DNA of 39,654 nt from an uncultured Burkholderiales bacterium (lineage in GTDB: Bacteria; Pseudomonadota; Gammaproteobacteria; Burkholderiales; Burkholderiaceae_C). The stretch spans positions 1 to 39,654 of the forward strand of contig CADEEN010000001.1 in NCBI GenBank assembly GCA_902826345.1, written 5' to 3'. A model generated the notes under the pieces. The model was given only the letters and a program-made list of their open reading frames with translations, did no database searches and was not told where the DNA came from. Shown here in pieces: positions 12,116-24,598 of this stretch. Position numbers and translations under genes: made by a program. Within the stretch, counting starts at the first letter, position 1. Every line of letters starts with the position of its first letter.

Positions 12116-12985
12116 ATGGACCCGACCGACGCCCGCGCCATCGACACGCTTGCGCGCTGCGGCTTCACGCAGTACCAGACACGCGTCTGGCTGGGCATGA
12201 CCCATGGCTTTCCGGTCACGGCATACGAGCTGGCGCGTCGCTGCGAGCTGCCGCGGCCCAACGTCTATGCCGCGGTCAGAAGATTGGTGGAGCTCGGCGC
12301 CGCCGAGCAGGTGGGGCAGCAGCCCGACACCTACGCACCGACCGACCCGCGCGCCTTCCTGGAGCGCCAGGCCACCGATCTGCGAGACCGCTGCAACGCG
12401 TTGTCGGCGAGCCTGGCGCAGCGTCTGCAGCGTGCCGGCCGCGGCTCGATCCGTACCGCCACGGGCTTGGCCGATTGCGAGGCCCACTTGCGCTCCGAGG
12501 TGCAGCAGGCTCGCAGCTACCTCTGGCTCAAGGGGCGTTCGGCGCAGTTGCTGCGCATCGCCGACGACCTGCGCAGCGCCGGCCGCCGCGGCGTGGCGTT
12601 GAAGTTGATCGTCTTCGGCCGCACCACCGAGCTCAATGCGTTGCTCAAGAAGCTACCCGGCGCCGAGGTCTTCTCGCACGAGGGTAGCGGCCAGCGCATC
12701 ACCGGCGCCACCGATGCGCTGCTGACGCTGGCGCGTGACGGCGAGGCGGTGACGACCTTTTCCTTTTCCTCGCCGCCGCAGTTCACCCACGCACGCGACC
12801 ATCTGCTGGTCTACGTGATCCATTCCTACCTGCTGCACGAGGTCTTCCTGGCCGAGATGGCCACCGCGCCGACCACGGGCGCGCGAGTTCGCGACGAGAT
12901 ACTGCGTTTGCGCAAGCTGCATCGCCCGACGGGCATGGAGAAAACGGTCACTGGTGCGGAAGACCGCCCATTTCACGGACGGTAA
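12116..12985 (+). CDS. TrmB-family transcriptional regulator
   Basis: 289 aa. The N-terminal winged helix LARCGFTQYQTRVWLGMTHGFPVTAYELARRCELPRPNVYAAVRRLVELGA matches the TrmB HTH pattern. It is divergent from the Bug-CoA-transferase-porin operon. Confidence 0.7.
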   Translation: MDPTDARAIDTLARCGFTQYQTRVWLGMTHGFPVTAYELARRCELPRPNVYAAVRRLVELGAAEQVGQQPDTYAPTDPRAFLERQATDLRDRCNALSASLAQRLQRAGRGSIRTATGLADCEAHLRSEVQQARSYLWLKGRSAQLLRIADDLRSAGRRGVALKLIVFGRTTELNALLKKLPGAEVFSHEGSGQRITGATDALLTLARDGEAVTTFSFSSPPQFTHARDHLLVYVIHSYLLHEVFLAEMATAPTTGARVRDEILRLRKLHRPTGMEKTVTGAEDRPFHGR

Positions 12986-13574: not shown

Positions 13575-14786
13575 CTACAGATCGCGCGCGCGCCCCGTGA
13601 AGTCGGCCAGCGACAACGACAAGTACTCCGGCACGCACTCGAGGTGGCCGCTCGGCACGGTGGTGCAGTCGGCGAGCGTCACGTCACCGGCGCCACGCGC
13701 GCGCATCGCCGCAAGCGCCGTCGTCGAGGCGGCGTAGGGCACGGTCAGGTCGTCGCGGCCGTGGAACAGGCGCACCGGCACCGCGGGCGCCCAGTCGTGC
13801 ACGTTGCTCGTGCGCTCGATGGCCGCGCGGTCGTCGGCCAGGTAGTGGTCGAGCAGCGTCAGGTCGAAAGCGACGTCGGCCTCCTCCGGCAACAGCGCCT
13901 TGCGCAACAGCTCGCGCACGGCCACACGCACCGCCGCGCTGGCGTCCTTCAAACGCTCGGGGTCGATCAGCGCGCCGAGCACCGGGTCGGCTTCACGCAC
14001 GCGGCGCAGCAACTCGTCGAGCGTCACGCCGGCGTCGTACGGCCCGGCGCCCGGCGCGGTGGCCACGAGCGCCGTCAGCAGCGCGCCGCCGGCCGATTGG
14101 CCAGCCATTTGCAGCGCGCGGTGCGCGGCCATCGTGGCGTAGCCGCCTTCGGAGTAGCCGATCAGGAAAAGCTGGCCGTTGTCGGCGACGCCGTTTCGCG
14201 CGCGCCATGTCGTGGCCGCGGTCAGCAGATCGATCACCGCGGCCGCCGTCGGCGCCGCGAGCAGGTACGGGTGCGGCGTGCCCTTCGACGCACCGTAGCC
14301 GACATAGTCCGCCGCAACCACGATGTAGCCCAGCGACGCCAGCACCACGGCGGGCTCCTCGGCAGGCCCCATCGAGCCGGCGCGGTTGCTCGGCGCTTCT
14401 TTGTCCTGCTCGATCGTGCCGTGCTGGTAGCTCAGCACCGGGCTCTTCGCCCCGGCACTCTTCACCGGCACGCTGACCAGGCCCGAGGCAACGATCGGCC
14501 GGCCCTGGGCGTCGATCGTGCGGTAGGTCAGGCGGTGGTTGATGACTTCGTAGCGCGGCACGAGTCCCGCGGTCTTGCTGTCCGGCGCCTGCACGGCGGC
14601 GCTGATGTCGGCCACGGCAACGCGGTTGATCTGCGCCGCCGATTCGAGCCGGCCGGGCTCCGTCGGCTCGCCAGCCGCGGGCGGCGCCGCGTCGCCGTCC
14701 GAACCACCACCGCCGCAGGCAGCGAGCAGCATCGGCAGCAGCAAGCAGCGCAGCAGGTTTCGCAGCCGCACGCACATCATCATCAT
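13575..14786 (-). CDS. Secreted lipoprotein, alpha/beta-hydrolase (lipase/esterase-like)
   Basis: Start at a run of four ATG codons (MMMMCVRLRNLLRCLLLPMLLAACGGGG; lipobox LLAAC). Nucleophile elbow GYSEGG, later HGRDDLTVP (Asp) and PSGHLECV (His), in Ser-Asp-His order. Confidence 0.75.
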   Translation of the reverse strand: MMMMCVRLRNLLRCLLLPMLLAACGGGGSDGDAAPPAAGEPTEPGRLESAAQINRVAVADISAAVQAPDSKTAGLVPRYEVINHRLTYRTIDAQGRPIVASGLVSVPVKSAGAKSPVLSYQHGTIEQDKEAPSNRAGSMGPAEEPAVVLASLGYIVVAADYVGYGASKGTPHPYLLAAPTAAAVIDLLTAATTWRARNGVADNGQLFLIGYSEGGYATMAAHRALQMAGQSAGGALLTALVATAPGAGPYDAGVTLDELLRRVREADPVLGALIDPERLKDASAAVRVAVRELLRKALLPEEADVAFDLTLLDHYLADDRAAIERTSNVHDWAPAVPVRLFHGRDDLTVPYAASTTALAAMRARGAGDVTLADCTTVPSGHLECVPEYLSLSLADFTGRARDL

Positions 14787-14967: not shown

Positions 14968-15828
14968 ATGCCCATGCCGACTGTCGTTCACGTTTCGCGC
15001 GCCGCCGCGCTCGCCGCTGTGTTGCTCATCACCGCCTGCGCCTCGACCGAGCCGGCCGAAGGCCCGCCGCGCAAGGAAACCGTGCTGGCCGCCACGGTGG
15101 GTGGCGAATTGATTCGCTTCAACGCCGGCCAACCGTCACGCGTGTTGTCGCGCGTGACGGTCAGCGGCCTGGACAGCGGCGACCGCCTCGTCGGCATCGA
15201 CTTCCGCATGTCGCGCGGCGTGCTCTTCGCGCTCTCGGCGCGCGGCCGGCTGTACACGCTCGACACGGCCAGCGGCAAGCTGACGGCGGTGGGCCCGGGC
15301 GTTGCGCAGTCCGCTGCCGACCAGGCCGTCGGCTTCGACTTCAACCCGGCGGCCGACCGCATCCGTGTCGTCACGGCGAGCGGGCGCAACCTGCGCCTGC
15401 ACCCGGACAGCGGCGCGCTCGCCGCCGAAGACCCGGCCTTGCGCTATGCCGACGGCGACGCCGCGGCGGGCACGCCGGCACGCGTCGCGGCGGCAGCCTA
15501 CACCTACAACAACACCGACCCGAAGCTGACCACCAACTACGCGCTCGACCTCGCCCGCGGCACGCTCGTGCGCCAGGGCTCGGTCGAAGGCAAACAACCC
15601 GCCGTCTCGCCGAACACCGGCCTGCTGGCCACCGTCGGCGCGCTCGGCACGGGCGCGGTGGACGACGCCGCGTTCGACATCGCCGATGTCAGCAACGCGG
15701 CGCTGGCCGCGCTGCGCCGCGGCGGCGTGACGCAGTTGCACCTGCTCGATCTGGCCAGCGGCCGCGCCACGCCACTCGGCCGTGTCGGCGACGGGCAGGC
15801 GCTGACCGGTCTGGCGATCGAGCCCTGA
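14968..15828 (+). CDS. DUF4394-domain lipoprotein
   Basis: Start at MPMPTVVHVSRAAALAAVLLITACAS (lipobox). LVGIDFRMSRGVLFALS...GFDFNPAADRIRVVTASGRNLRLHPDSG...AYTYNN...TNYALD match the DUF4394 repeat pattern. The upstream part of track ORF 14575.. is antisense to the lipase gene and is discarded. Confidence 0.75.
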   Translation: MPMPTVVHVSRAAALAAVLLITACASTEPAEGPPRKETVLAATVGGELIRFNAGQPSRVLSRVTVSGLDSGDRLVGIDFRMSRGVLFALSARGRLYTLDTASGKLTAVGPGVAQSAADQAVGFDFNPAADRIRVVTASGRNLRLHPDSGALAAEDPALRYADGDAAAGTPARVAAAAYTYNNTDPKLTTNYALDLARGTLVRQGSVEGKQPAVSPNTGLLATVGALGTGAVDDAAFDIADVSNAALAALRRGGVTQLHLLDLASGRATPLGRVGDGQALTGLAIEP

Positions 15829-16469
15829 TGCTGCACGCGAACCGGCAACGACGCGACCTGCTCGGCCTGCTCGGCTTGCAGGCTGCATCGTTGCTGCCCG
15901 CGCTGACGCGCGCCGCGGCGCCGAACGCGCCGCTCGACATCCGCGTCACCGACGCTGCCGGCAAGCCGGTCAGCGGCGCCGTCGTCTTCCTCGATTCGCC
16001 GCAGGCGCGCGAGCAGGTGCGGCCGCTGGCCGGCGCCGAAGTGGCGCAAGCCGAGCGCCGCTTCACGCCGGCGGTGAGCGTGGTCACCGTCGGCACCGCG
16101 GTGACATTTCCGAACCTCGACACGGTGCGCCACCACGTCTACTCGTTCTCGCCGACGAAGCGCTTCGAGATCAAGCTCTACGTCGGCACGCCGGCCGCGC
16201 CGGTGGTCTTCGACCAGCCCGGCATCGCCGTGCTCGGCTGCAACATCCACGACCAGATGGCGGCGTGGATCGTCGTCGTCGCCACGCCGTGGTTCGGCCG
16301 CAGCAACGACGCCGGGCGTTGGGCCGCCGCCGCCGCGCCGCCGGGCCGCTACACGCTGCGCGCCTGGCATGCCGGCATGCCGGTGGGCGCGGCGCCGGTG
16401 GAGCAAGCGCTGACGGTCGATGCCGCGGGCGCGCGTGGCGTGGTCACGCTGCCGTCGATCAAGGCATGA
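15828..16469 (+). CDS. Tat-exported cupredoxin-like protein with an amicyanin-type type-1 Cu site (often annotated as methylamine utilization protein)
   Basis: Start at MLHANRQRRDLLGLLGLQAASLLPALTRAAA (twin-arginine motif). Candidate ligands are VRHHVYSF and GCNIHDQM (C-x2-H-x2-M; Cys codon at 16239-16241). The ATG overlaps the upstream TGA by 1 nt (15826-15830). Confidence 0.75.
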   Translation: MLHANRQRRDLLGLLGLQAASLLPALTRAAAPNAPLDIRVTDAAGKPVSGAVVFLDSPQAREQVRPLAGAEVAQAERRFTPAVSVVTVGTAVTFPNLDTVRHHVYSFSPTKRFEIKLYVGTPAAPVVFDQPGIAVLGCNIHDQMAAWIVVVATPWFGRSNDAGRWAAAAAPPGRYTLRAWHAGMPVGAAPVEQALTVDAAGARGVVTLPSIKA

Positions 16470-18868
16470 CGGCGATGCCTGACCCGCGCAAGCTGCTCGC
16501 CGGCTGGCGCCTGTCGACGCGCATGGTGGTGCCGTCGCTGCTGCTGCTGCTGGTGCTGCAACTCGCCGGCCTGGCCGTGATCCGCGGCGGCGTCGATGCC
16601 AACGCGCGCGCGCAGCTTGCCGAGCGGCTGGTGGTCAGCGAGCGCATCTGGCAGCGCTTGCTCGAACAGCGCGCGGCCAAGCTCGGCCAGGGCGCGGCGC
16701 TGCTGGCCGCCGACTACGGCTTGCGCTCGGCGATCGGCAGCGCCGACGAAGAAACGATCCACTCCGCGCTCGACAACCACGGCGCGCGCATCGATGCCGC
16801 GCTGACGGCGCTGCTCGACACCGAGCTGGCGGTGCGCACGGTGTCGCACGGCGAAGATGCGAGCCTGCGGCCGGCCACCGCCGTGCTCGGCACGATCGCG
16901 CCGCAGCTGGCCACCGACGGCGCGGCGATCGCGATGGTCGGCGCGCGGCCGTACCAGTTCGTCATGGTGCCGGTGCGCGCGCCGCTGGTCATCGGCTGGG
17001 TGGCGATGGGCTTCGAGCTGGACCGCGGGCCGATCGACGATCTGCATGCCGTCTCCGGCCTGCACGGCGTGCTCGTGGTGGCGCAGACCGACGGCACAGC
17101 AGCGCGCGTGCTGCACGCCAGCGTGCCGCCGGCGCTGGCGGCCGACGTGCTCGCCGGCGCAGTGGCTGCCGCTGCCGGTCAGCCGATGTCGGAGGCCAGC
17201 GTCGGCGACGCGCCCTACCTGCTGCGCCCGGTGGCGGTGTCGTCCGGCGCGCAGGGCCGCGTGCAGTTGCTGCTCGCCGGCTCGATCGACGACGCGGTCT
17301 CGCCGTACCGCGCGCTGCAATGGACGCTGGCGCTGCTGACGCTGCTCGGCGTGGCGCTGTTCGGCGTCGGCAGCGCCTGGACCGCCGGCCACGTGACACG
17401 GCCGCTCGGCGCGCTGGTGCAGGCCAGCATGCGCCTGGGCCGCGGCGACTATGCCTCGCCGATCACCCACACCGGCGACCGCGGCGAGGTCGGCGACCTG
17501 GCGCGCGCCTTCGACCACATGCGCAGCAACATCGCCACGCAGCAGCAGGAGATCCGCCAACTCGCGTACTGGGACCGGCTGACCGGCCTGCCGAACCGCC
17601 TGCAGTTCCGCGACGCCGTGGTGGCCGCGGTGGAGGCGGGTGAGAACGGCACCGGCAGCCAGCGCGAAGGCCTGGCGGTGATCATGCTCGACCTCGACCG
17701 CTTCAAGCATGTCAACGACGTGCTCGGCTACGCCTCCGGCGACCGCCTGCTGCAGGGCGTGGCCGAGCGCCTGCGCAGCGTCGTGCGCGACGTGGACACC
17801 GTGGCGCGGCTGGGCGGCGACGAGTTCGCGCTGCTGCTGCCCGAAGCCGACGCGGCCCTCGCGCAGGACGTGGCGCGGCGCATCGGCGCCGCCTTCGAAG
17901 CGCCGCTGAACCTCGACGACCACCGCGTCGATCTGTCCGCCGGCCTGGGCATCGCACTGTGGCCGGCGCACGGCCCCGACGCCGACACGCTGCTCTCGCG
18001 CGCCGAGGTGGCGATGTACGCCGCCAAGCGCCGCACCGCCGGCGCGCAGGTGTATGACGCGTCGCAGGACCACGCCAGCGCGCAGAACCTGTCGCTGCTG
18101 ACGGAGTTGCGCCAAGCCGTCGACGAAGGCCAGTTGCGTCTGTTCCTGCAACCGAAGATCGCGGTGGCCAGCGGCGCGTTGTGTGGCGCCGAGGCGCTGG
18201 TGCGTTGGCAGCACCCGACACGCGGCCTCGTGCCGCCGATGGACTTCATTCCGTTCGCCGAGCAGACCGGCTTCATCCGCCAGCTCACGCTGTGGATGTT
18301 CGGCGAACTCGCGCGCCGGCAATCGGCGCTGGCGGCGATGGGCGTGGCCCGTGTGGCCATCAATTTGTCGACGCGCGACCTGCTCGACAACGAGCTGCCG
18401 GAAAAACTCGATGCCCTGCTGCAACGCCACGGCGCCACTGCGTCGCGGCTGTGCCTGGAGATCACCGAGAGCGCGATCATGGACGACCCCGAGCGCGCCG
18501 AAGCGACGTTGAAGCGCCTGGCCGAGCGCGGCTTCAAGCTGTCGATCGACGACTTCGGCACCGGATACTCATCGCTGGCGTATCTGAAGCGGCTGCCGGT
18601 GCACGAGCTGAAGATCGACAAGAGTTTCGTCATGGCGATGGAGCGCGATGCCAGCGACGCCAAGATCGTGCGCTCGACGGTCGATCTGGCGCATGCGCTC
18701 GGGTTGACGGTGGTGGCCGAGGGTGTCGAGAACTCGTCGATCCTGGCGCAGTTGCGGGTCCTTGGTTGCGATGACGCGCAAGGCTTTCATTTCGCCAAGC
18801 CACTGGCGTTCGATGCGTTTGGGGCTTGGGTGGCGACGCATGCGGAGCGTTGTGCTGTCGTCGCTTGA
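16466..18868 (+). CDS. Membrane sensor with a periplasmic domain, HAMP, GGDEF (diguanylate cyclase) and EAL (c-di-GMP phosphodiesterase)
   Basis: Start at MTAMPDPRKLLAGWRL (ATGA overlap with the upstream stop). Layout: TM1, then about 290 aa of periplasmic domain, then TM2 (WTLALLTLLGVALFGVGSAW). HAMP is RPLGALVQASMRLGRGDY. RDVDTVARLGGDEFALLL carries an RxxD I-site 5 residues before GGDEF. EALVRW, DDFGTGYSS, KIDKSF and EGVE are also present. Confidence 0.92.
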   Translation: MTAMPDPRKLLAGWRLSTRMVVPSLLLLLVLQLAGLAVIRGGVDANARAQLAERLVVSERIWQRLLEQRAAKLGQGAALLAADYGLRSAIGSADEETIHSALDNHGARIDAALTALLDTELAVRTVSHGEDASLRPATAVLGTIAPQLATDGAAIAMVGARPYQFVMVPVRAPLVIGWVAMGFELDRGPIDDLHAVSGLHGVLVVAQTDGTAARVLHASVPPALAADVLAGAVAAAAGQPMSEASVGDAPYLLRPVAVSSGAQGRVQLLLAGSIDDAVSPYRALQWTLALLTLLGVALFGVGSAWTAGHVTRPLGALVQASMRLGRGDYASPITHTGDRGEVGDLARAFDHMRSNIATQQQEIRQLAYWDRLTGLPNRLQFRDAVVAAVEAGENGTGSQREGLAVIMLDLDRFKHVNDVLGYASGDRLLQGVAERLRSVVRDVDTVARLGGDEFALLLPEADAALAQDVARRIGAAFEAPLNLDDHRVDLSAGLGIALWPAHGPDADTLLSRAEVAMYAAKRRTAGAQVYDASQDHASAQNLSLLTELRQAVDEGQLRLFLQPKIAVASGALCGAEALVRWQHPTRGLVPPMDFIPFAEQTGFIRQLTLWMFGELARRQSALAAMGVARVAINLSTRDLLDNELPEKLDALLQRHGATASRLCLEITESAIMDDPERAEATLKRLAERGFKLSIDDFGTGYSSLAYLKRLPVHELKIDKSFVMAMERDASDAKIVRSTVDLAHALGLTVVAEGVENSSILAQLRVLGCDDAQGFHFAKPLAFDAFGAWVATHAERCAVVA

Positions 18869-19018: not shown

Positions 19019-19837
19019 TCACCGCTTCGACGGCTCGCCCAGCATCCACTCATGCGCCGGATCATTGCGAAACACCCACAGCCGCTGCGGCCCGGCCATG
19101 ACGTTCAGGTAGTACGAGTCGTAGCCATGCGGCACGACGACCGGGTGGTAGCCGCGCGGCACCATCACCACGTCGTGGTCCTCCACCGCCATCGACTCGT
19201 CGAGGCTGCGGTCGTCGGTGTAGACGCGCTGGAAAGCGAAACCCTGCGCCGGGTTCAGGCGGTGGTAGTAGGTTTCTTCGAGCTGCGTTTCGGTGGGCGG
19301 CGTTTCGCTGTCGTGCTTGTGCGGCGGGTAGCTCGACGAGTGGCCGGCCGGCGTGCGCACCTCGACGACGAGCAGATGCGCGGCGGTCGGGTCGTCGTGC
19401 GGCAGCACGTCGCAGATAAAACGCGTGTTGCTGCCCTGGCCGCGCGTGCTGCGGCGCATCGCCGTCGGGTCGAGGCGTTTGACCTGACGCGGCGCGCCGT
19501 CGCAGGGCGCACTGCACAGCGCGACTTCGGCGTCGCTCGTGGCAGTGACCGCGACGCGCTGCTGCGGCGGCACATAGACGGCATCCGGTGCGCGGTCGTC
19601 GAAAACATGCTTGCGCGTGCCGAGGTTCGTCAACGACTGGTTGCCCGCCTGCACATCGACCTTGCCTGCGAGCACGACGATGCAAAGCTCGCGCGCGCCG
19701 GTGTCGAGTGCCTCGCTCTCGCCGGCTTTCAAACGCAGCGCACGAAAGCCGACATGCGCCCAGCCGGCGCGCTCGGGCGTGACGTTGACGATCTCGCGGC
19801 CGTCGCGCCGCGCCTTGGCCAGCAGCGGGCTCGTCAC
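19019..19837 (-). CDS. iolB: 5-deoxy-glucuronate isomerase
   Basis: 272 aa cupin-type IolB (GWAHVGFRALRLKAGES...YPPHKHD...EETYYH...YHPVVVPHGYDSYYLNVMAGP). A 4-nt overlap with the iolE stop. Confidence 0.9.
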   Translation of the reverse strand: MTSPLLAKARRDGREIVNVTPERAGWAHVGFRALRLKAGESEALDTGARELCIVVLAGKVDVQAGNQSLTNLGTRKHVFDDRAPDAVYVPPQQRVAVTATSDAEVALCSAPCDGAPRQVKRLDPTAMRRSTRGQGSNTRFICDVLPHDDPTAAHLLVVEVRTPAGHSSSYPPHKHDSETPPTETQLEETYYHRLNPAQGFAFQRVYTDDRSLDESMAVEDHDVVMVPRGYHPVVVPHGYDSYYLNVMAGPQRLWVFRNDPAHEWMLGEPSKR

Positions 19838-20778
19838 GACAGTCCGTCCAGATTACGCACGATGCGCTTCAAGGTGTTGAAGCCCTTCTTCGCATAGGCA
19901 TAGCTCGGCGCCACCGCCGGGTCCTGCTCGGCCTCGACGACGAGCCAGCCTGCGTAGCCCGCGCGGTGCAGCGTCGACAGCACCGCGTCGTAGTCGATCA
20001 CGCCGTCGCCCGGCACGGTGAAGGTGCCGGCGAGCACGCCGGCGAGAAAGCTCCAGCCATCGTTGCGCGCCTTGGCGATCAGCGCGGGGCGCACGTCCTT
20101 GCAATGCACGTGCACGACGCGCTGCACATGACGCGCCAGCAGCGCGTTCGGATCGGCGGCGCCGCCGAAGTACGCATGGCCGGTGTCGAACAGCAGGCCG
20201 ACGCAGGCCGGGTCGGTGAGTGCCATCAGGCGGTCGATGTCGTCCGGCGACTCGACATACGCGCCCATGTGGTGGTGGTAGGCCAGCGTGATGCCATAGC
20301 TGCTTTTCAAGTGCGCGCCGAAGCGGTTCAAGCGCTCGGCATACGCATGCCACTGCGCGTCGTTCGCAAAGCGCGGCCGGCGGTCGAGCGGCGTGTCGAT
20401 CCGGCCTTGCACGCTGCCGGCGACTTCGCCATAGACGACGACCTTGCAGTCGTTGAAGCGCAGCTTGTCCATGTGCGCGTGGCAGCGCTGAATTTCGTCC
20501 TCGACCGAGACCTGAGCCAGATTCGCCAGTTCACCCGAGTACCAGCCCGAGACGCAGGCCAGGCCGTATTCATCCAGCTTGGCCTTGAGCGCGGGGCCTT
20601 CCTGCGGAAACTTGTTGCCGATCTCGAACCCGGCGTAGCCGATCGCTTTGCCTTCGGCCAGCGCCGTCTCCAGCGGGGTCTCGCCGCCGAGCGACGGCAG
20701 GTCGTCGTTCATCCAACTCAGCGGGTTGACGCCGATGCGCACGTTCCAGGCTTGTCCTGAGCTTGTCGAAGTGCTCAT
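19834..20778 (-). CDS. iolE: Inosose (2-keto-myo-inositol) dehydratase
   Basis: Start at MSTSTSSGQAWNVRIGVNPLSWMNDDLPSLG. The xylose-isomerase-like TIM barrel shows IolE hallmarks (GVNPLSWMNDD, HHHMG, VVEAEQDP). The upstream part of the track ORF is discarded. Confidence 0.9.
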   Translation of the reverse strand: MSTSTSSGQAWNVRIGVNPLSWMNDDLPSLGGETPLETALAEGKAIGYAGFEIGNKFPQEGPALKAKLDEYGLACVSGWYSGELANLAQVSVEDEIQRCHAHMDKLRFNDCKVVVYGEVAGSVQGRIDTPLDRRPRFANDAQWHAYAERLNRFGAHLKSSYGITLAYHHHMGAYVESPDDIDRLMALTDPACVGLLFDTGHAYFGGAADPNALLARHVQRVVHVHCKDVRPALIAKARNDGWSFLAGVLAGTFTVPGDGVIDYDAVLSTLHRAGYAGWLVVEAEQDPAVAPSYAYAKKGFNTLKRIVRNLDGLS

Positions 20779-22625
20779 GTCGCTTGCGTTTTCCGTTTCG
20801 CTCGTTCGTACTGCTCGCGCGCGGCCCGCACCTCGGCGCGCGGCGAGACTTCGGGAATCGCCACGTCCCACCACGCGCCGCCGTCGTCGGTGGTGCGCCA
20901 GGGCGTCGTGTCGATGACGATGACCTGCGTCGTCGTCGCCGCACGGGCCGCGCGCATCGCACGCTTCAACTCGGCGATGTCCTTCACATGCACCGCCGTC
21001 GCGCCGAGGCTCGCCGCATGCGCGGCGAAGTCGATCGCCACCGGCGAGCCGCAGTCTTCGAGCAGGTTGTTGAAGCGCGGGCTGCCGCTGGCCAGTTGCA
21101 GGCGCTGAATGCAGCCGTAGCCGCGGTTGTCGAGCACGACGACGATGAGCTTGCACTTCAACATCAGCGACGTGGCGATCTCGGAGTTCAACATCAGGTA
21201 CGAGCCGTCGCCGACCATGGCGATGACTTCGCGCTCCGGCCGCACCAGCTTGACGCCCAACGCGCCGGCGATCTCGTAGCCCATGCACGAGTAGCCGTAC
21301 TCGACGTGATACCCGCCAGGCTGCGACGTGCGCCACAACTTGTGCAGCTCGGCGGGCAGCGTGCCGGCGGCGCAGACGACGATGTCGTCGCGGTCGCTGT
21401 GTTCGGCCGAGTCGCGCACGGCGCCGATGACCTCGGCGTCGTAGGGCAACTCACCGGCCGGCGTCGCTGCGGAAGTGAGCTCGGCAACGCGGCCGTTCCA
21501 CTGCGCAGCCAGCGACTGCGCAAGCGCCGTCCACTGCGCATCGGCGCGCCAGCTGCCCGGGCGCAGCGCGGCGAGCACGACGCGCGCATCGGCCACCACG
21601 GCGTGGCCGCGCGACTTGATCGCGTCCTGCGGCTGCACGTTGATCGACAGCAGCGTGGCGCCGCTGAACAACCGCTGCGAACCGGTGGTGAAGTCTTGCA
21701 GCCGCGTGCCGACGGCAATGACGAGATCGGCCTCGGCCGCCAGCGCATTGGCCGCGGGCGAGCCGGTGACGCCGATCGCGCCGACGTTCGACGCATGGTC
21801 CCACGCCAGCGCGCCCTTGCCGGCCTGTGTTTCGGCCACCGGCACGCCGTGCGCCGTGGCCCATGCGGCGAGCGCGGCGCCGGCGCGGCTGTAAAGCACG
21901 CCGCCGCCGGCGACGACGAGCGGGCGCTTCGAGGCGCAAAGCAGCTCGTTGGCCGCGGCGAGTTCGCGCGCGTCGGGCGCCGGCCGGCGGATGTGCAGCG
22001 GCGGCGGTTGCAGGAACGACGTGGGGCAATCGAAGGCCATCGTCTGCACGTCCTGCGGCAGCGCGAGACACACGGGGCCGCACAGCGCCGGATCGAGCAT
22101 CACCTGCACCGCGCGCGGCAGCGCGCAAAGAATCTGCTCGGGCCGCGTGATGCGGTCGAAGTAGCGCACCAGCGGACGGAAGGCATCGTTGGCGCTGATG
22201 TCGCCGGCAGCGAAGTCTTCGACCTGCTGCAGCACCGGGTCCGGCGCGCGCGACGCGAACACGTCGCCGGGCAACAGCAGCACCGGCAGGCGATTGACAT
22301 GGGCCAGCGCGGCGGCCGTCAGCAGGTTCGTCGCGCCGGGGCCGATCGACGTCGTCACGGCCATGATGCGCTGGCGGAAGTTCGCTTTGGCGAAAGCAAT
22401 CGCGGCATGCGTCATCGCCTGCTCGTTGTGCGCGCGGTAGGTCGGCAGCGTGTCGCGCACCTGCGCCAGCGCTTCGCCGAGGCCGGCGACGTTGCCGTGG
22501 CCGAAGATCGCCCAGACGCCCGCGCAGTACGGCACGACGCTGCCGTCGTCGTGCGCGATGTGCAATGCAGCGAGGTGGGCGACCAAGGCTTGCGCCATCG
22601 TCAGGCGCACGGTGTTCGTCGTCAT
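20775..22625 (-). CDS. iolD: 3D-(3,5/4)-trihydroxycyclohexane-1,2-dione acylhydrolase (ThDP-dependent)
   Basis: Start at MTTNTVRLTMAQALVAHL. ThDP enzyme motifs include GHGNVAGLGEAL, SIGPGATNLLTAAA and MVGDGSYLMLNSE. Confidence 0.9.
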   Translation of the reverse strand: MTTNTVRLTMAQALVAHLAALHIAHDDGSVVPYCAGVWAIFGHGNVAGLGEALAQVRDTLPTYRAHNEQAMTHAAIAFAKANFRQRIMAVTTSIGPGATNLLTAAALAHVNRLPVLLLPGDVFASRAPDPVLQQVEDFAAGDISANDAFRPLVRYFDRITRPEQILCALPRAVQVMLDPALCGPVCLALPQDVQTMAFDCPTSFLQPPPLHIRRPAPDARELAAANELLCASKRPLVVAGGGVLYSRAGAALAAWATAHGVPVAETQAGKGALAWDHASNVGAIGVTGSPAANALAAEADLVIAVGTRLQDFTTGSQRLFSGATLLSINVQPQDAIKSRGHAVVADARVVLAALRPGSWRADAQWTALAQSLAAQWNGRVAELTSAATPAGELPYDAEVIGAVRDSAEHSDRDDIVVCAAGTLPAELHKLWRTSQPGGYHVEYGYSCMGYEIAGALGVKLVRPEREVIAMVGDGSYLMLNSEIATSLMLKCKLIVVVLDNRGYGCIQRLQLASGSPRFNNLLEDCGSPVAIDFAAHAASLGATAVHVKDIAELKRAMRAARAATTTQVIVIDTTPWRTTDDGGAWWDVAIPEVSPRAEVRAAREQYERAKRKTQAT

Positions 22626-22627
22626 CG

Positions 22628-24598
22628 TCAGTCGCTCCTCGTTCGCCGCCATGCCTCGACCAGGTGGCCGAAGCGCGAGGCCACGCGATCGATCAGCGCC
22701 GCGTCGTCCATGGCACCGGTGAGCCACTCGCGGCTGGCGTCGCCCCAGATCGTGCGGCCGACCATGAAGCCGCGCACGATCGGCTGCCGTGCCGCCGCGA
22801 AGCCTTCGATCAAGCGCTCGATCGGTTGGGCCAGGCCGAGCAGCACGACACCGCGGCAGTAGGGGTCGCGCTCGGCGATCAACGCGCCCAAGGTCTCCCA
22901 CGAGGCCGCCTGCATCGGCGCCAGCTTCCACCACTCGGGTCGGATGCCGAGGTTGTAGAAGCGCTCGAGGGCGCGCAGCACCTCAGAGTCGGTTCGGGCT
23001 CGGCCTGTCGAAGCCCCGGCCAGCCCTTCGACAGACTCAGGGCGAACGGATGGGGCGGCGGGCGGAATCACTTCGAGCAGCAACTCGTGGCCACTCGCGC
23101 GCGTGGCTTGCCACAGCTCCAACAACCGCTCCTCCTGCGCCACGCGCAGCGTCGCCTCGTCGTCCGGGTGGTATGCAACGAGGCACTTCACGACCTGCTC
23201 GCGCGGCCACTCGACGAGCGTCGTGCCGATCGATCGCGTGCCGTCGAAGGCGAGCGGCCGCGAGCCCGGCTGCTCGACCGGCCGGCCGACCCACCAACCG
23301 CGGCCCGTCGCCGCGCACAGCGCGTCGCTGCCCCAGCGGCCGTCGATCAGCACGCCGATGCGGCCTTGCAGCGCGTGCTGTGTCTCGACCTGCTCGGCGG
23401 CCCTCAGCAGCAGCGACTTCAACAGCGGCAGCTTCGACAACGGCGCACCGCTCTCGCGCGCCATCGCCTCGAACTGCGAGCGGTGATCGAAGGCCATCAC
23501 GTTCAACTCGGGCCAGGCCGGCCGCGACGCGGTGACGCGGTGCAGGTGCGCGAGCAGCGGGTCGGCATCGACCGACGGCTGCCGCGCGCCGCTGAACCAA
23601 TGATCGAGCTCGGGGGGCGTCGGCATCGCCGGCGCGCAGGCGTGACGCGAGACGACGATCGCGCCGCAGGCGTTGGCGATGCGCGCGCTGGCATGGAAGT
23701 CCAGGCCGTCGAGCAGGCCCTTCATCAAACCCGCGGCAAAGGCATCGCCGGCGCCGAGCACGTTGAAGACCTCGATGCGTTCGCCCACCGCCGTCGGCGC
23801 GTCTTCCAGGCGCGCCGGTACCGCGCCGTCGATGAAGCAGCAACCCTTGGCGCCGAGCTTGACGACCATCGCTGCCGCGCTGACCTCACGCACGCGGCGC
23901 AGCGAAGCGAGCAGATCGCCGGCCACGCCGCCCGCGATGCAGAACTCTTCTTCGGTGCCGATCAGCAGATCGAACTGCGGCAGCACCGCCTGCAGGCGCT
24001 CTGTCACCGCCGCATCGGCGACGAAGCGGTTCGCGCCTTCGCCGCGCTTGGTCAAGCCCCACAGCACCGGCCGGTAGTCGATGTCGAGCACACGCGTCGT
24101 GCCGTGCTGGGCGGCAAAGCCCAAGGCCGCGAGCGACGCTGCGCGCACTGCCGGCGTGGACAGGTGCGTGCCGGTGATCAGCAAGGCGCGGCAGCCGGCG
24201 ATGAAGCGCTCGTCGATGCGCGACGCCTCCACCGCCATGTCGGCGCAGTTCTCGCGCACGAAGAGCAGTGGAAAAGTGTCGCGGTCTTTCAGTCCGAGCA
24301 GCACGAGGCCGGTGAGGCGCTCGGCATCGACCTGCACCTGGCTCGTGTCGCAGCCCTCGCGCTGCAGCGTCTCGATCAGGTACCGCCCCATCTGCTCGTC
24401 GCCGACGCGCGAGACCATCGCCGCTCGCAAGCCCAGCCGCGCGCAGCCGAAGGCGATGTTGGCCGAGCTGCCGCCCAGGTACTTGGCGAAGCTCGACACG
24501 TCTTCGAGCCGCGCGCCGACCTGCTGTGCGTACAGGTCCACCGCCAGGCGGCCGAGGCAGGCGATGTCGAAGCGGCGACCGGCAGGCGTGCACAGCAT
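22628..24598 (-). CDS. iolC: Bifunctional 5-dehydro-2-deoxygluconokinase (PfkB) fused to a DUF2090-type 5-dehydro-2-deoxyphosphogluconate aldolase domain
   Basis: 656 aa. The N-terminal half is a PfkB kinase (GGSSANIAFGCARLG, NVLGAGDAFAAG). The C-terminal ~300 aa form the extra domain seen in proteobacterial IolC fusions. No separate iolJ is present in the window. Confidence 0.85.
   Translation of the reverse strand: MLCTPAGRRFDIACLGRLAVDLYAQQVGARLEDVSSFAKYLGGSSANIAFGCARLGLRAAMVSRVGDEQMGRYLIETLQREGCDTSQVQVDAERLTGLVLLGLKDRDTFPLLFVRENCADMAVEASRIDERFIAGCRALLITGTHLSTPAVRAASLAALGFAAQHGTTRVLDIDYRPVLWGLTKRGEGANRFVADAAVTERLQAVLPQFDLLIGTEEEFCIAGGVAGDLLASLRRVREVSAAAMVVKLGAKGCCFIDGAVPARLEDAPTAVGERIEVFNVLGAGDAFAAGLMKGLLDGLDFHASARIANACGAIVVSRHACAPAMPTPPELDHWFSGARQPSVDADPLLAHLHRVTASRPAWPELNVMAFDHRSQFEAMARESGAPLSKLPLLKSLLLRAAEQVETQHALQGRIGVLIDGRWGSDALCAATGRGWWVGRPVEQPGSRPLAFDGTRSIGTTLVEWPREQVVKCLVAYHPDDEATLRVAQEERLLELWQATRASGHELLLEVIPPAAPSVRPESVEGLAGASTGRARTDSEVLRALERFYNLGIRPEWWKLAPMQAASWETLGALIAERDPYCRGVVLLGLAQPIERLIEGFAAARQPIVRGFMVGRTIWGDASREWLTGAMDDAALIDRVASRFGHLVEAWRRTRSD

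Follow-up and report, generated by a model that had tools for sequence, protein, structure and literature searches.

Introduction

Which genes form the functional unit around a membrane enzyme of cyclic di-GMP (c-di-GMP) turnover, and how might a periplasmic protein encoded beside that enzyme supply its signal? The question is raised by a locus of an uncultured Burkholderiales bacterium (Burkholderiaceae_C; contig CADEEN010000001.1 of assembly GCA_902826345.1), of which the whole analysed stretch of 39,654 nucleotides, positions 1 to 39,654 of the forward strand, is referred to here as the window. Three genes follow one another at this locus, encoding a lipoprotein of the DUF4394 family, a periplasmic cupredoxin-like protein and an inner-membrane sensor with HAMP, GGDEF and EAL domains. 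An earlier interpretation made from the DNA letters alone, referred to below as the sequence-only reading, joined all three into one module with a possible redox or copper input to c-di-GMP signalling. Comparison of gene neighbourhoods draws the boundary differently: the conserved unit is a two-gene pair, composed of the cupredoxin-like gene and the HAMP-GGDEF-EAL sensor gene, rather than three genes.

Conservation of the gene neighbourhood

Related loci were collected by a genome scan with one genome per species, the best 80 matches being Burkholderiales loci of 52-88% identity with neighbours located by tblastn, and by a metagenome scan with the family profile, again limited to the best 80 matches. 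To these were added 12 further loci (L081-L087, L168-L171 and the window itself), annotated or gene-called and including Caballeronia and the alphaproteobacterium Novosphingobium, the complete context sample spanning relatives of ca. 39-88% identity. The sensor gene lies directly downstream of the cupredoxin-like gene in every genome locus with enough flanking sequence (74 of 74) and in 50 of 56 metagenome loci. A HAMP-GGDEF-EAL sensor is likewise adjacent, either downstream or divergent, in all of the further loci (12/12), down to 39% identity, with Pfam reporting a dCache_3 domain in most of them. Where genes were called or annotated, the junction between the two is either an overlap or a gap of at most 11 nt. 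The linkage of a cupredoxin-like gene to a GGDEF-EAL sensor, as the sequence-only reading had it, is thus confirmed well beyond the window. Furthermore, when the cupredoxin and the periplasmic and cytoplasmic parts of the sensor are compared by their pairwise distances, the three correlate with one another (r 0.83-0.88), indicating that the cupredoxin and both parts of the sensor are inherited together.

The same neighbourhood check, suggested with the sequence-only reading, does not support the trio as a conserved unit. The DUF4394 gene stands directly upstream of the pair in only 46 of the 74 genome loci and is adjacent in 17 of 54 metagenome loci. Even the closest relatives of the window, L001 and L002 (81-87% identity), lack it and have the neighbouring alpha/beta-hydrolase gene directly upstream of the cupredoxin-like gene. 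Loci without a recognisable accessory gene have upstream genes which are mutually unrelated (MCP, SDR, lyase, GNAT and MnmA), and in approximately 30% of the genome loci the pair stands alone between unrelated flanks. Taken as counts, these neighbourhoods identify the cupredoxin-like protein as the hub, with the sensor as its near-constant partner and DUF4394 as one of several optional partners.

The full trio, in the same order, is also found in L081, at positions 44347-48301 of the 143 kb Comamonas aquatica plasmid p1_SCLZS63. It lies there beside genes of a type IV conjugative pilus, from which it follows that the module can move horizontally.

The cupredoxin-like protein

The middle protein was initially taken for one amicyanin-like domain, a description which the structural model alters. 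Its AlphaFold2 (AF2) model, built on 71 homologues and of mean pLDDT (predicted local distance difference test) 85.8, displays two beta-sandwiches, the first composed of residues 34-56 together with 156-208 and the second of residues ~70-152, the cupredoxin being inserted into a CarboxypepD_reg-like sandwich. The latter is recognised by Pfam PF13620 (CarboxypepD_reg) at residues 157-189 with 30.4 bits, short of the 32.3 required, and by profile matches to beta-sandwich repeats of NOMO and of pilins.

Comparison of the model with the Protein Data Bank (PDB) by Foldseek returned amicyanin, pseudoazurin, the C-terminal cupredoxin of three-domain NirK, the Nitrosopumilus protein 5fc9 and plastocyanin (E 3e-5 to 6e-4), with amicyanin and pseudoazurin the best at E 3e-5 and target-normalised template-modelling scores of 0.5-0.62 among the cupredoxin matches. 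A profile built from 63 diverse members of the family matches NirK domains in the PDB (6hbe, E 3.3e-5; 9cck, E 8.7e-5), as well as the blue copper protein 5fc9 (0.0017) and amicyanin (0.06). In the alignment with 9cck, FPNsDnvrH lies opposite WTNDDSVVH and GCniHDeM opposite ICTLHPWM, bringing Cys, His and Met into register, while in that with 5fc9 the first His, the Cys and the second His are aligned with the ligands of the middle protein. On its own, the sequence of the middle protein finds nothing significant in the PDB (E 0.29), and sequence similarity to classical cupredoxins is marginal (E 0.06-0.3).

The two ligand motifs picked out at the outset, VRHHVYSF and GCNIHDQM, are both present and supply H102, C138, H141 and M144. 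Among 151 representatives, each of no more than 62% identity to the window protein, H102 is retained in 151/151, C138 and H141 in 150/151 each, and M144 in 149/151; the FPN-x-D motif just ahead of the first ligand is, like the four ligands, kept in at least 98% of these divergent sequences. Such near-total conservation indicates that the candidate type-1 set with its C-x2-H-x2-M loop is real and under strong selection. The site is nevertheless atypical: the first ligand is followed by His or Gln where Asn is usual, and the second His by an Asp that hardly varies. Foldseek, the family profile and ligand conservation therefore all bear out the earlier assignment of a cupredoxin fold with an amicyanin-type loop; judged by modelled fold and ligand positions the middle protein appears to be a cupredoxin, and as such may bind copper.

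A twin-arginine translocation (Tat) leader had also been proposed. The motif QRRDLLGLLG is indeed present in the window protein, though it is no trait of the family: an RR motif occurs in the leaders of 50/120 close homologues and in those of only 9/150 diverse representatives, most others being of the general secretory (Sec) type. The family itself is large, with more than 6,000 homologues in a word-indexed search and 7,546 clusters at 50% identity (E <=1e-3) in an exhaustive one, and its members are labelled by annotation pipelines as 'plastocyanin' (JGI) or 'methylamine utilization protein' (NCBI). One metagenomic member, P0161 (575 aa), is fused to a second cupredoxin, recognised by Pfam Copper-bind PF00127 (34.7 bits, cut-off 21.2; E 2.4e-8 for the whole protein).

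The sensor

Two statements of the sequence-only reading regarding the periplasmic part of the sensor required revision. Hydropathy places the transmembrane segments (TM1 and TM2) at residues ~19-40 and ~284-306, leaving ~243 aa between them instead of the ~290 aa initially given, and this part, which had been left without a named sensor family, contains a Pfam dCache_3 domain at 53.8 bits (cut-off 25.7). A single-sequence search of the PDB with the periplasmic part gave nothing significant, and a homology search with it returned 13 fragments only. The remaining architecture was described correctly, with HAMP (48.3 bits), GGDEF (133.8 bits) and EAL (239.6 bits) following in order and with the motifs RDVD-TVARL-GGDEF, EALVRW, DDFGTGYSS and EGVE all in place; by its motifs, the window sensor is predicted to have both catalytic domains and the I-site intact.

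Across 111 full-length orthologous sensors the two output domains differ in how well they are kept. The EAL motif is found in 106/111, DDFGTGYSS in 101/111 and EGVE in 102/111, whereas a canonical GGDEF motif ([GSA]G[DE]EF) occurs in 56/111 and is degenerate in 55/111, including 34/111 with GGNEF in which the RxxD I-site is lost as well. This split is independent of the type of accessory gene. Retention of the EAL motifs, together with GGDEF degeneration in half of the orthologues, suggests that the activity conserved across the family is that of a phosphodiesterase, the window sensor belonging to the half which, by its motifs, could also synthesise c-di-GMP.

The DUF4394 lipoprotein and alternative accessory proteins

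The first gene was correctly recognised as encoding a DUF4394 lipoprotein. Its match to PF14339 reaches 228.5 bits (cut-off 29.6) over profile positions 2-230 of 230, and the lipobox residue Cys24 is invariant in 48 homologues. The AF2 model (pLDDT 86) is a beta-propeller with generic beta-propellers as its only structural neighbours. No NCBIfam family covers the protein, a single-sequence PDB search gave no significant match, and the family profile found in the PDB only a weak match to a BamB-like blade (E ~0.1). The third-ranked Foldseek match, the propeller of the Deinococcus radiodurans Cu/Zn superoxide dismutase (9m58/9m59), was set aside, there being no similarity at the sequence level; it would be a further case of a propeller joined to a copper protein of the periplasm. 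In L171 (1-1330), a DUF4394 gene comes straight after one encoding a di-haem cytochrome c peroxidase (CCP_MauG), and a cluster of DUF3034, haemoglobin, cupredoxin and sensor genes follows 4.7 kb downstream, an arrangement which hints at DUF4394 as a more general partner of periplasmic redox proteins.

In other lineages represented by the further loci, DUF4394 is replaced by a DUF3034 protein with a truncated haemoglobin, or by proteins resembling outer-membrane proteins (OMP-like). The DUF3034 protein, with its signal peptide and a Phe at the C-terminus, resembles an outer-membrane barrel, while the OMP-like accessories, of 399-420 aa and also ending in Phe, belong to no Pfam family. The truncated haemoglobin is of group 1, carries a signal peptide and is apparently periplasmic (L082, 5486-5917; also L083, L086, L087, L171 and others), recurring together with DUF3034 beside the cupredoxin-sensor pair. 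Secretion is already an unusual property for a truncated haemoglobin. In addition, a lipocalin is found among these accessories, and L086 and L087 have an AhpC/Redoxin (peroxiredoxin) gene on the upstream side. No cop, cus or cue genes of copper homeostasis were found beside any of the sampled further loci. The recurrent secreted haemoglobin and the peroxiredoxin neighbour would point to O2, nitric oxide (NO) or an oxidant as the signal, rather than to copper supply.

Comparison with known systems

Amicyanin (MauC) is a single domain of ~105 aa, encoded in the mau cluster, and acts as the electron acceptor of methylamine dehydrogenase. The window protein shares with amicyanin, pseudoazurin and plastocyanin the Greek-key cupredoxin fold, a first His within (V/I)xFxNxDxxxH and a C-terminal Cys-x2-His-x2-Met, the spacing of which is that of amicyanin and agrees with the 9cck alignment. 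It differs from all three in carrying its cupredoxin as an insertion within another beta-sandwich, with His or Gln for the Asn after the first ligand, and in having a signalling enzyme as its constant partner, with no mau or redox-enzyme context. As a two-domain protein of 213 aa without a mau context, it is not an amicyanin. No mau or methylamine dehydrogenase genes were detected near the 12 annotated or gene-called loci, and in the window its neighbours are the hydrolase, DUF4394, sensor and iolB genes and that of a TrmB-like regulator. MauL, encoded in the mau cluster of Methylobacterium extorquens, is a cupredoxin-like protein. The NCBI name 'methylamine utilization protein' given to the homologues is shared with it, but no NCBIfam model matches here.

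Two described systems resemble the present module in layout. In NspS-MbaA of Vibrio cholerae, an accessory protein sets the balance between c-di-GMP synthesis and breakdown (PMC8967002, PMC5646818). As in the window, the gene of a secreted protein immediately precedes that of a membrane GGDEF-EAL enzyme which has HAMP and a periplasmic domain; NspS, however, is a polyamine-sensing solute-binding protein, whereas here a protein with a predicted copper site accompanies a dCache_3 sensor, and the accessories share no detected homology. The YfiBNR (TpbB) system of Pseudomonas aeruginosa is composed of a lipoprotein, a periplasmic protein and a c-di-GMP enzyme (PMC2837407, PMC3375315, PMC4655355). 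Like the window module, YfiBNR places an outer-membrane lipoprotein, a soluble periplasmic protein and an inner-membrane HAMP-containing c-di-GMP enzyme in one operon, with a theme of redox or envelope stress. On the other hand, YfiB is Pal/OmpA-like and not a beta-propeller, the repressor YfiR is no cupredoxin, and YfiN is a PAS-HAMP-GGDEF cyclase lacking EAL. Gene order differs too, and the lipoprotein is dispensable in many lineages of the present module. The window sensor matches the NCBIfam DgcN/YfiN model through its GGDEF region only (143 bits against a cut-off of 325). The likeness to YfiBNR is accordingly one of layout only, and the cupredoxin-like protein is not homologous to components of either YfiBNR or NspS-MbaA.

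A proposed periplasmic co-sensor and the alternatives to it

By analogy with the layout of NspS-MbaA and YfiBNR, the favoured explanation, to which we give an even chance of being right, is that of a two-gene module in which the cupredoxin-like protein serves as a periplasmic co-sensor acting on the dCache_3-HAMP-GGDEF-EAL enzyme. The secreted cupredoxin-like protein and the sensor would be translated from the same mRNA, and the state of the copper site, whether oxidised or reduced, metal-loaded or empty, or reacted with NO, would alter the contact of the cupredoxin-like protein with dCache_3. HAMP would relay the resulting change to shift c-di-GMP turnover, probably by gating mainly the phosphodiesterase output. 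DUF4394 may then be an outer-membrane-anchored beta-propeller lipoprotein, one among several envelope proteins that can stand in for each other as partners of the cupredoxin-like protein. It might tether this protein or keep it sequestered, in the way YfiB acts on YfiR, or provide it with its input. Gene order, the identity of the domains, the modelled fold, the conservation of ligands and neighbourhood and the joint inheritance are what the analysis shows; that copper is bound, that the proteins touch, what the signal is and in which direction it regulates are what we infer in this model. A bolder version is proposed tentatively, as possible but on balance doubtful: a type-1 copper protein would function as a signalling receptor and not as an electron shuttle, sensing periplasmic redox state, O2 or NO, contacting dCache_3 and switching on the phosphodiesterase to control biofilm dispersal, joined in some lineages by the secreted truncated haemoglobin and an outer-membrane partner.

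Several observations weigh against the co-sensor model. In L118, L128 and L134, overlapping DUF4394 and cupredoxin-like genes occur without an adjacent sensor and are followed by unrelated convergent genes, and L159 also lacks an adjacent sensor; the cupredoxin-like protein of the first three loci can hence have a sensor-independent role. A Mantel partial correlation provides no signal of specific co-evolution, the value for cupredoxin and periplasmic part (0.31) being lower than that for cupredoxin and cytoplasmic part (0.57), and as the periplasmic domain is not singled out, contact is not demonstrated. The curated cupredoxin models of Pfam (E <=0.01) and NCBIfam do not match the middle protein. 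Finally, dCache domains usually bind small ligands (PMC4822843), which means that the sensor may need no protein partner.

Several of these observations lend themselves to the main rival, which we regard as rather unlikely, namely that the cupredoxin-like protein does no more than carry electrons in the periplasm, or belongs to an oxidoreductase of the envelope along with DUF4394, DUF3034, haemoglobin or the OMP-like protein, while dCache_3 senses a small molecule alone. The genes would then be neighbours through shared regulation, or through sensing of a substrate or product of the pathway, and not through protein contact. Type-1 copper proteins are classically electron shuttles, and the sensor-less gene pairs of three loci, the DUF4394 gene beside CCP_MauG in L171, the absence of a specific periplasmic co-evolution signal and the usual small ligands of dCache domains all fit an electron carrier. 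Against this, no recognisable redox enzyme is constant across the loci and only the sensor is, in the genome, metagenome and further loci alike; moreover, where the pair stands alone it has no local electron donor or acceptor. An obligate trio at fixed proportion, carrying a copper or redox signal through all three proteins, with a divergent lipase as its output, is unlikely. The three genes do overlap in the window and recur in the same order in 46/74 genome loci and on the Comamonas aquatica plasmid, and the sensor-less loci speak for a functional link between DUF4394 and the cupredoxin. Yet DUF4394 is absent from 28/74 genome and 37/54 metagenome loci, the two closest relatives included, its place being taken by unrelated genes or by DUF3034 with haemoglobin or OMP-like proteins. 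The proposed output, an alpha/beta-hydrolase lipoprotein gene (13575-14786, minus strand), does lie divergently across a 181-bp intergenic gap from the DUF4394 gene, as the sequence-only reading stated for its lipase/esterase. It is retained, however, only in L001, L002, L003 and L005, four near-identical loci of very close relatives, in which its presence reflects recent common descent and lends no support to an output role, and the lipase-as-output reading was rejected.

Two further explanations concern what the copper site itself might do. Copper availability could be the input, apo and copper-loaded forms contacting the sensor differently to build a periplasmic copper-to-c-di-GMP module. 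The conserved His/Cys/His/Met set would permit this, and the mostly Sec-type leaders imply that metal is acquired in the periplasm, with loading dependent on supply. This is nonetheless quite improbable: type-1 sites bind copper very tightly and make poor reversible metal sensors, no copper-homeostasis genes were seen beside the sampled loci, and the haemoglobin and peroxiredoxin neighbours suggest O2, NO or an oxidant instead. It is most improbable that the protein is a metal-free structural adaptor whose conserved Cys, His and Met serve thiol chemistry, zinc binding or a similar purpose. The lack of significant Pfam and NCBIfam cupredoxin matches and the atypical His and Asp beside the ligands would suit such an adaptor, and zinc is present in the crystal structure of the cupredoxin-like protein 4hcg, but the four ligands and FPN-x-D are conserved throughout the 151 representatives at the level given above and align with the copper ligands of NirK.

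Features of the locus

The features of the module, together with the sensor-less gene pairs of other loci, are collected in Table 1. The chain of overlapping stop and start codons first noted for the three genes is read directly in the sequence at both junctions, and co-expression of the trio at fixed stoichiometry is, from this codon overlap, plausible in the window.

Table 1. Coordinates of the module in the window and of sensor-less gene pairs elsewhere (positions of the latter refer to their own loci)
Feature	Position	Strand	Evidence
DUF4394 lipoprotein gene, 286 aa, predicted beta-propeller	14968-15828	+	Pfam PF14339, E 9e-68
Lipobox Cys24 (LITAC) of the DUF4394 protein	15037-15039	+	sequence
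TGATG, overlap of DUF4394 stop and cupredoxin-like start	15826-15830	+	sequence
Cupredoxin-like gene, 213 aa, periplasmic, two domains	15828-16469	+	AF2, Foldseek
Signal peptide with Tat-like QRRDLLGLLG (RR at 15849-15854)	15828-15920	+	sequence
N-terminal strands completing the CarboxypepD_reg-like sandwich, residues 34-56	15927-15995	+	AF2
Cupredoxin domain, residues ~70-152	16035-16283	+	fold match, ligand conservation
Candidate type-1 Cu ligands H102, C138, H141, M144	16131-16133, 16239-16241, 16248-16250, 16257-16259	+	
CarboxypepD_reg-like beta-sandwich, C-terminal half	16293-16451	+	sub-threshold Pfam, AF2 strands, profile matches
ATGA, overlap of sensor start and cupredoxin-like stop	16466-16469	+	sequence
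Inner-membrane sensor gene, 800 aa: TM1, dCache_3, TM2, HAMP, GGDEF, EAL	16466-18868	+	Pfam, hydropathy
Whole periplasmic part of the sensor, residues ~41-283	16586-17314	+	TM segments
dCache_3 match, residues 49-218	16610-17119	+	PF14827, E 2.6e-14
HAMP	17378-17533	+	PF00672, E 1.3e-12
GGDEF domain	17564-18034	+	PF00990, E 6e-39
RDVD-x5-GGDEF, residues 441-454	17786-17827	+	motif position
EAL domain with EAL, DDFGTGYSS and EGVE motifs	18104-18802	+	PF00563, E 3.8e-71
Sensor-less DUF4394/cupredoxin-like pairs	L118 6151-7582; L128 5825-7310; L134 6085-7597		

Upstream of the sensor-less pair, L118 and L128 both carry a gene for a DUF445 membrane protein. Within the window each module gene occurs only once, genes for DUF3034 or haemoglobin are absent, and there is no Rfam family, the c-di-GMP riboswitch included. 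No sigma-70-like promoter or meaningful terminator was found at the locus, and repeats in the 181-bp intergenic region were dismissed as GC-rich chance matches. A gene for a TrmB-like winged-helix transcription regulator (12116-12985, plus strand) lies upstream of the hydrolase gene. On the other side, an inositol-catabolism set (19019-22934, minus strand), apparently unrelated to the module, converges on the sensor gene; it includes iolB (KduI/IolB, E 2.4e-109) and, by eye, an IolE-like sugar-phosphate isomerase/dehydratase and an IolD-like thiamine-diphosphate enzyme.

Novelty and significance

The sequence-only reading knew of no signalling module joining a blue-copper protein and DUF4394 to c-di-GMP, and none was found in the searched literature, which holds no description of a module of cupredoxin or blue-copper protein with c-di-GMP, no mention of the DUF4394 family, and no DUF3034 or MauL link; on dCache_3 with GGDEF it offers general Cache surveys only. 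Periplasmic accessories of c-di-GMP enzymes are already known, whereas an accessory of blue-copper type, present at nearly all of ~140 loci with sufficient flanking sequence, is undescribed in that literature.

With the unit corrected from three genes to two, the conserved pairing suggests an undescribed route by which redox, copper or gas signals are fed into biofilm control. For the majority of membrane c-di-GMP enzymes no input signal is known, and this pairing is easily tested. It would give a role to a family of ~7,500 clusters (50% identity) now labelled 'plastocyanin' or 'methylamine utilization protein', and a metalloprotein would join, as a co-sensor, the small set of periplasmic accessories known for c-di-GMP enzymes. 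If redox state, O2 or NO is what the copper site senses, periplasmic respiration or nitrosative stress would be connected to biofilm control, and such a link, if true, spans many soil and water Burkholderiales and some Alphaproteobacteria. Should the bolder, receptor version hold as well, it would represent a widespread envelope-spanning pathway from gas or redox signals to c-di-GMP, of a kind not yet described.

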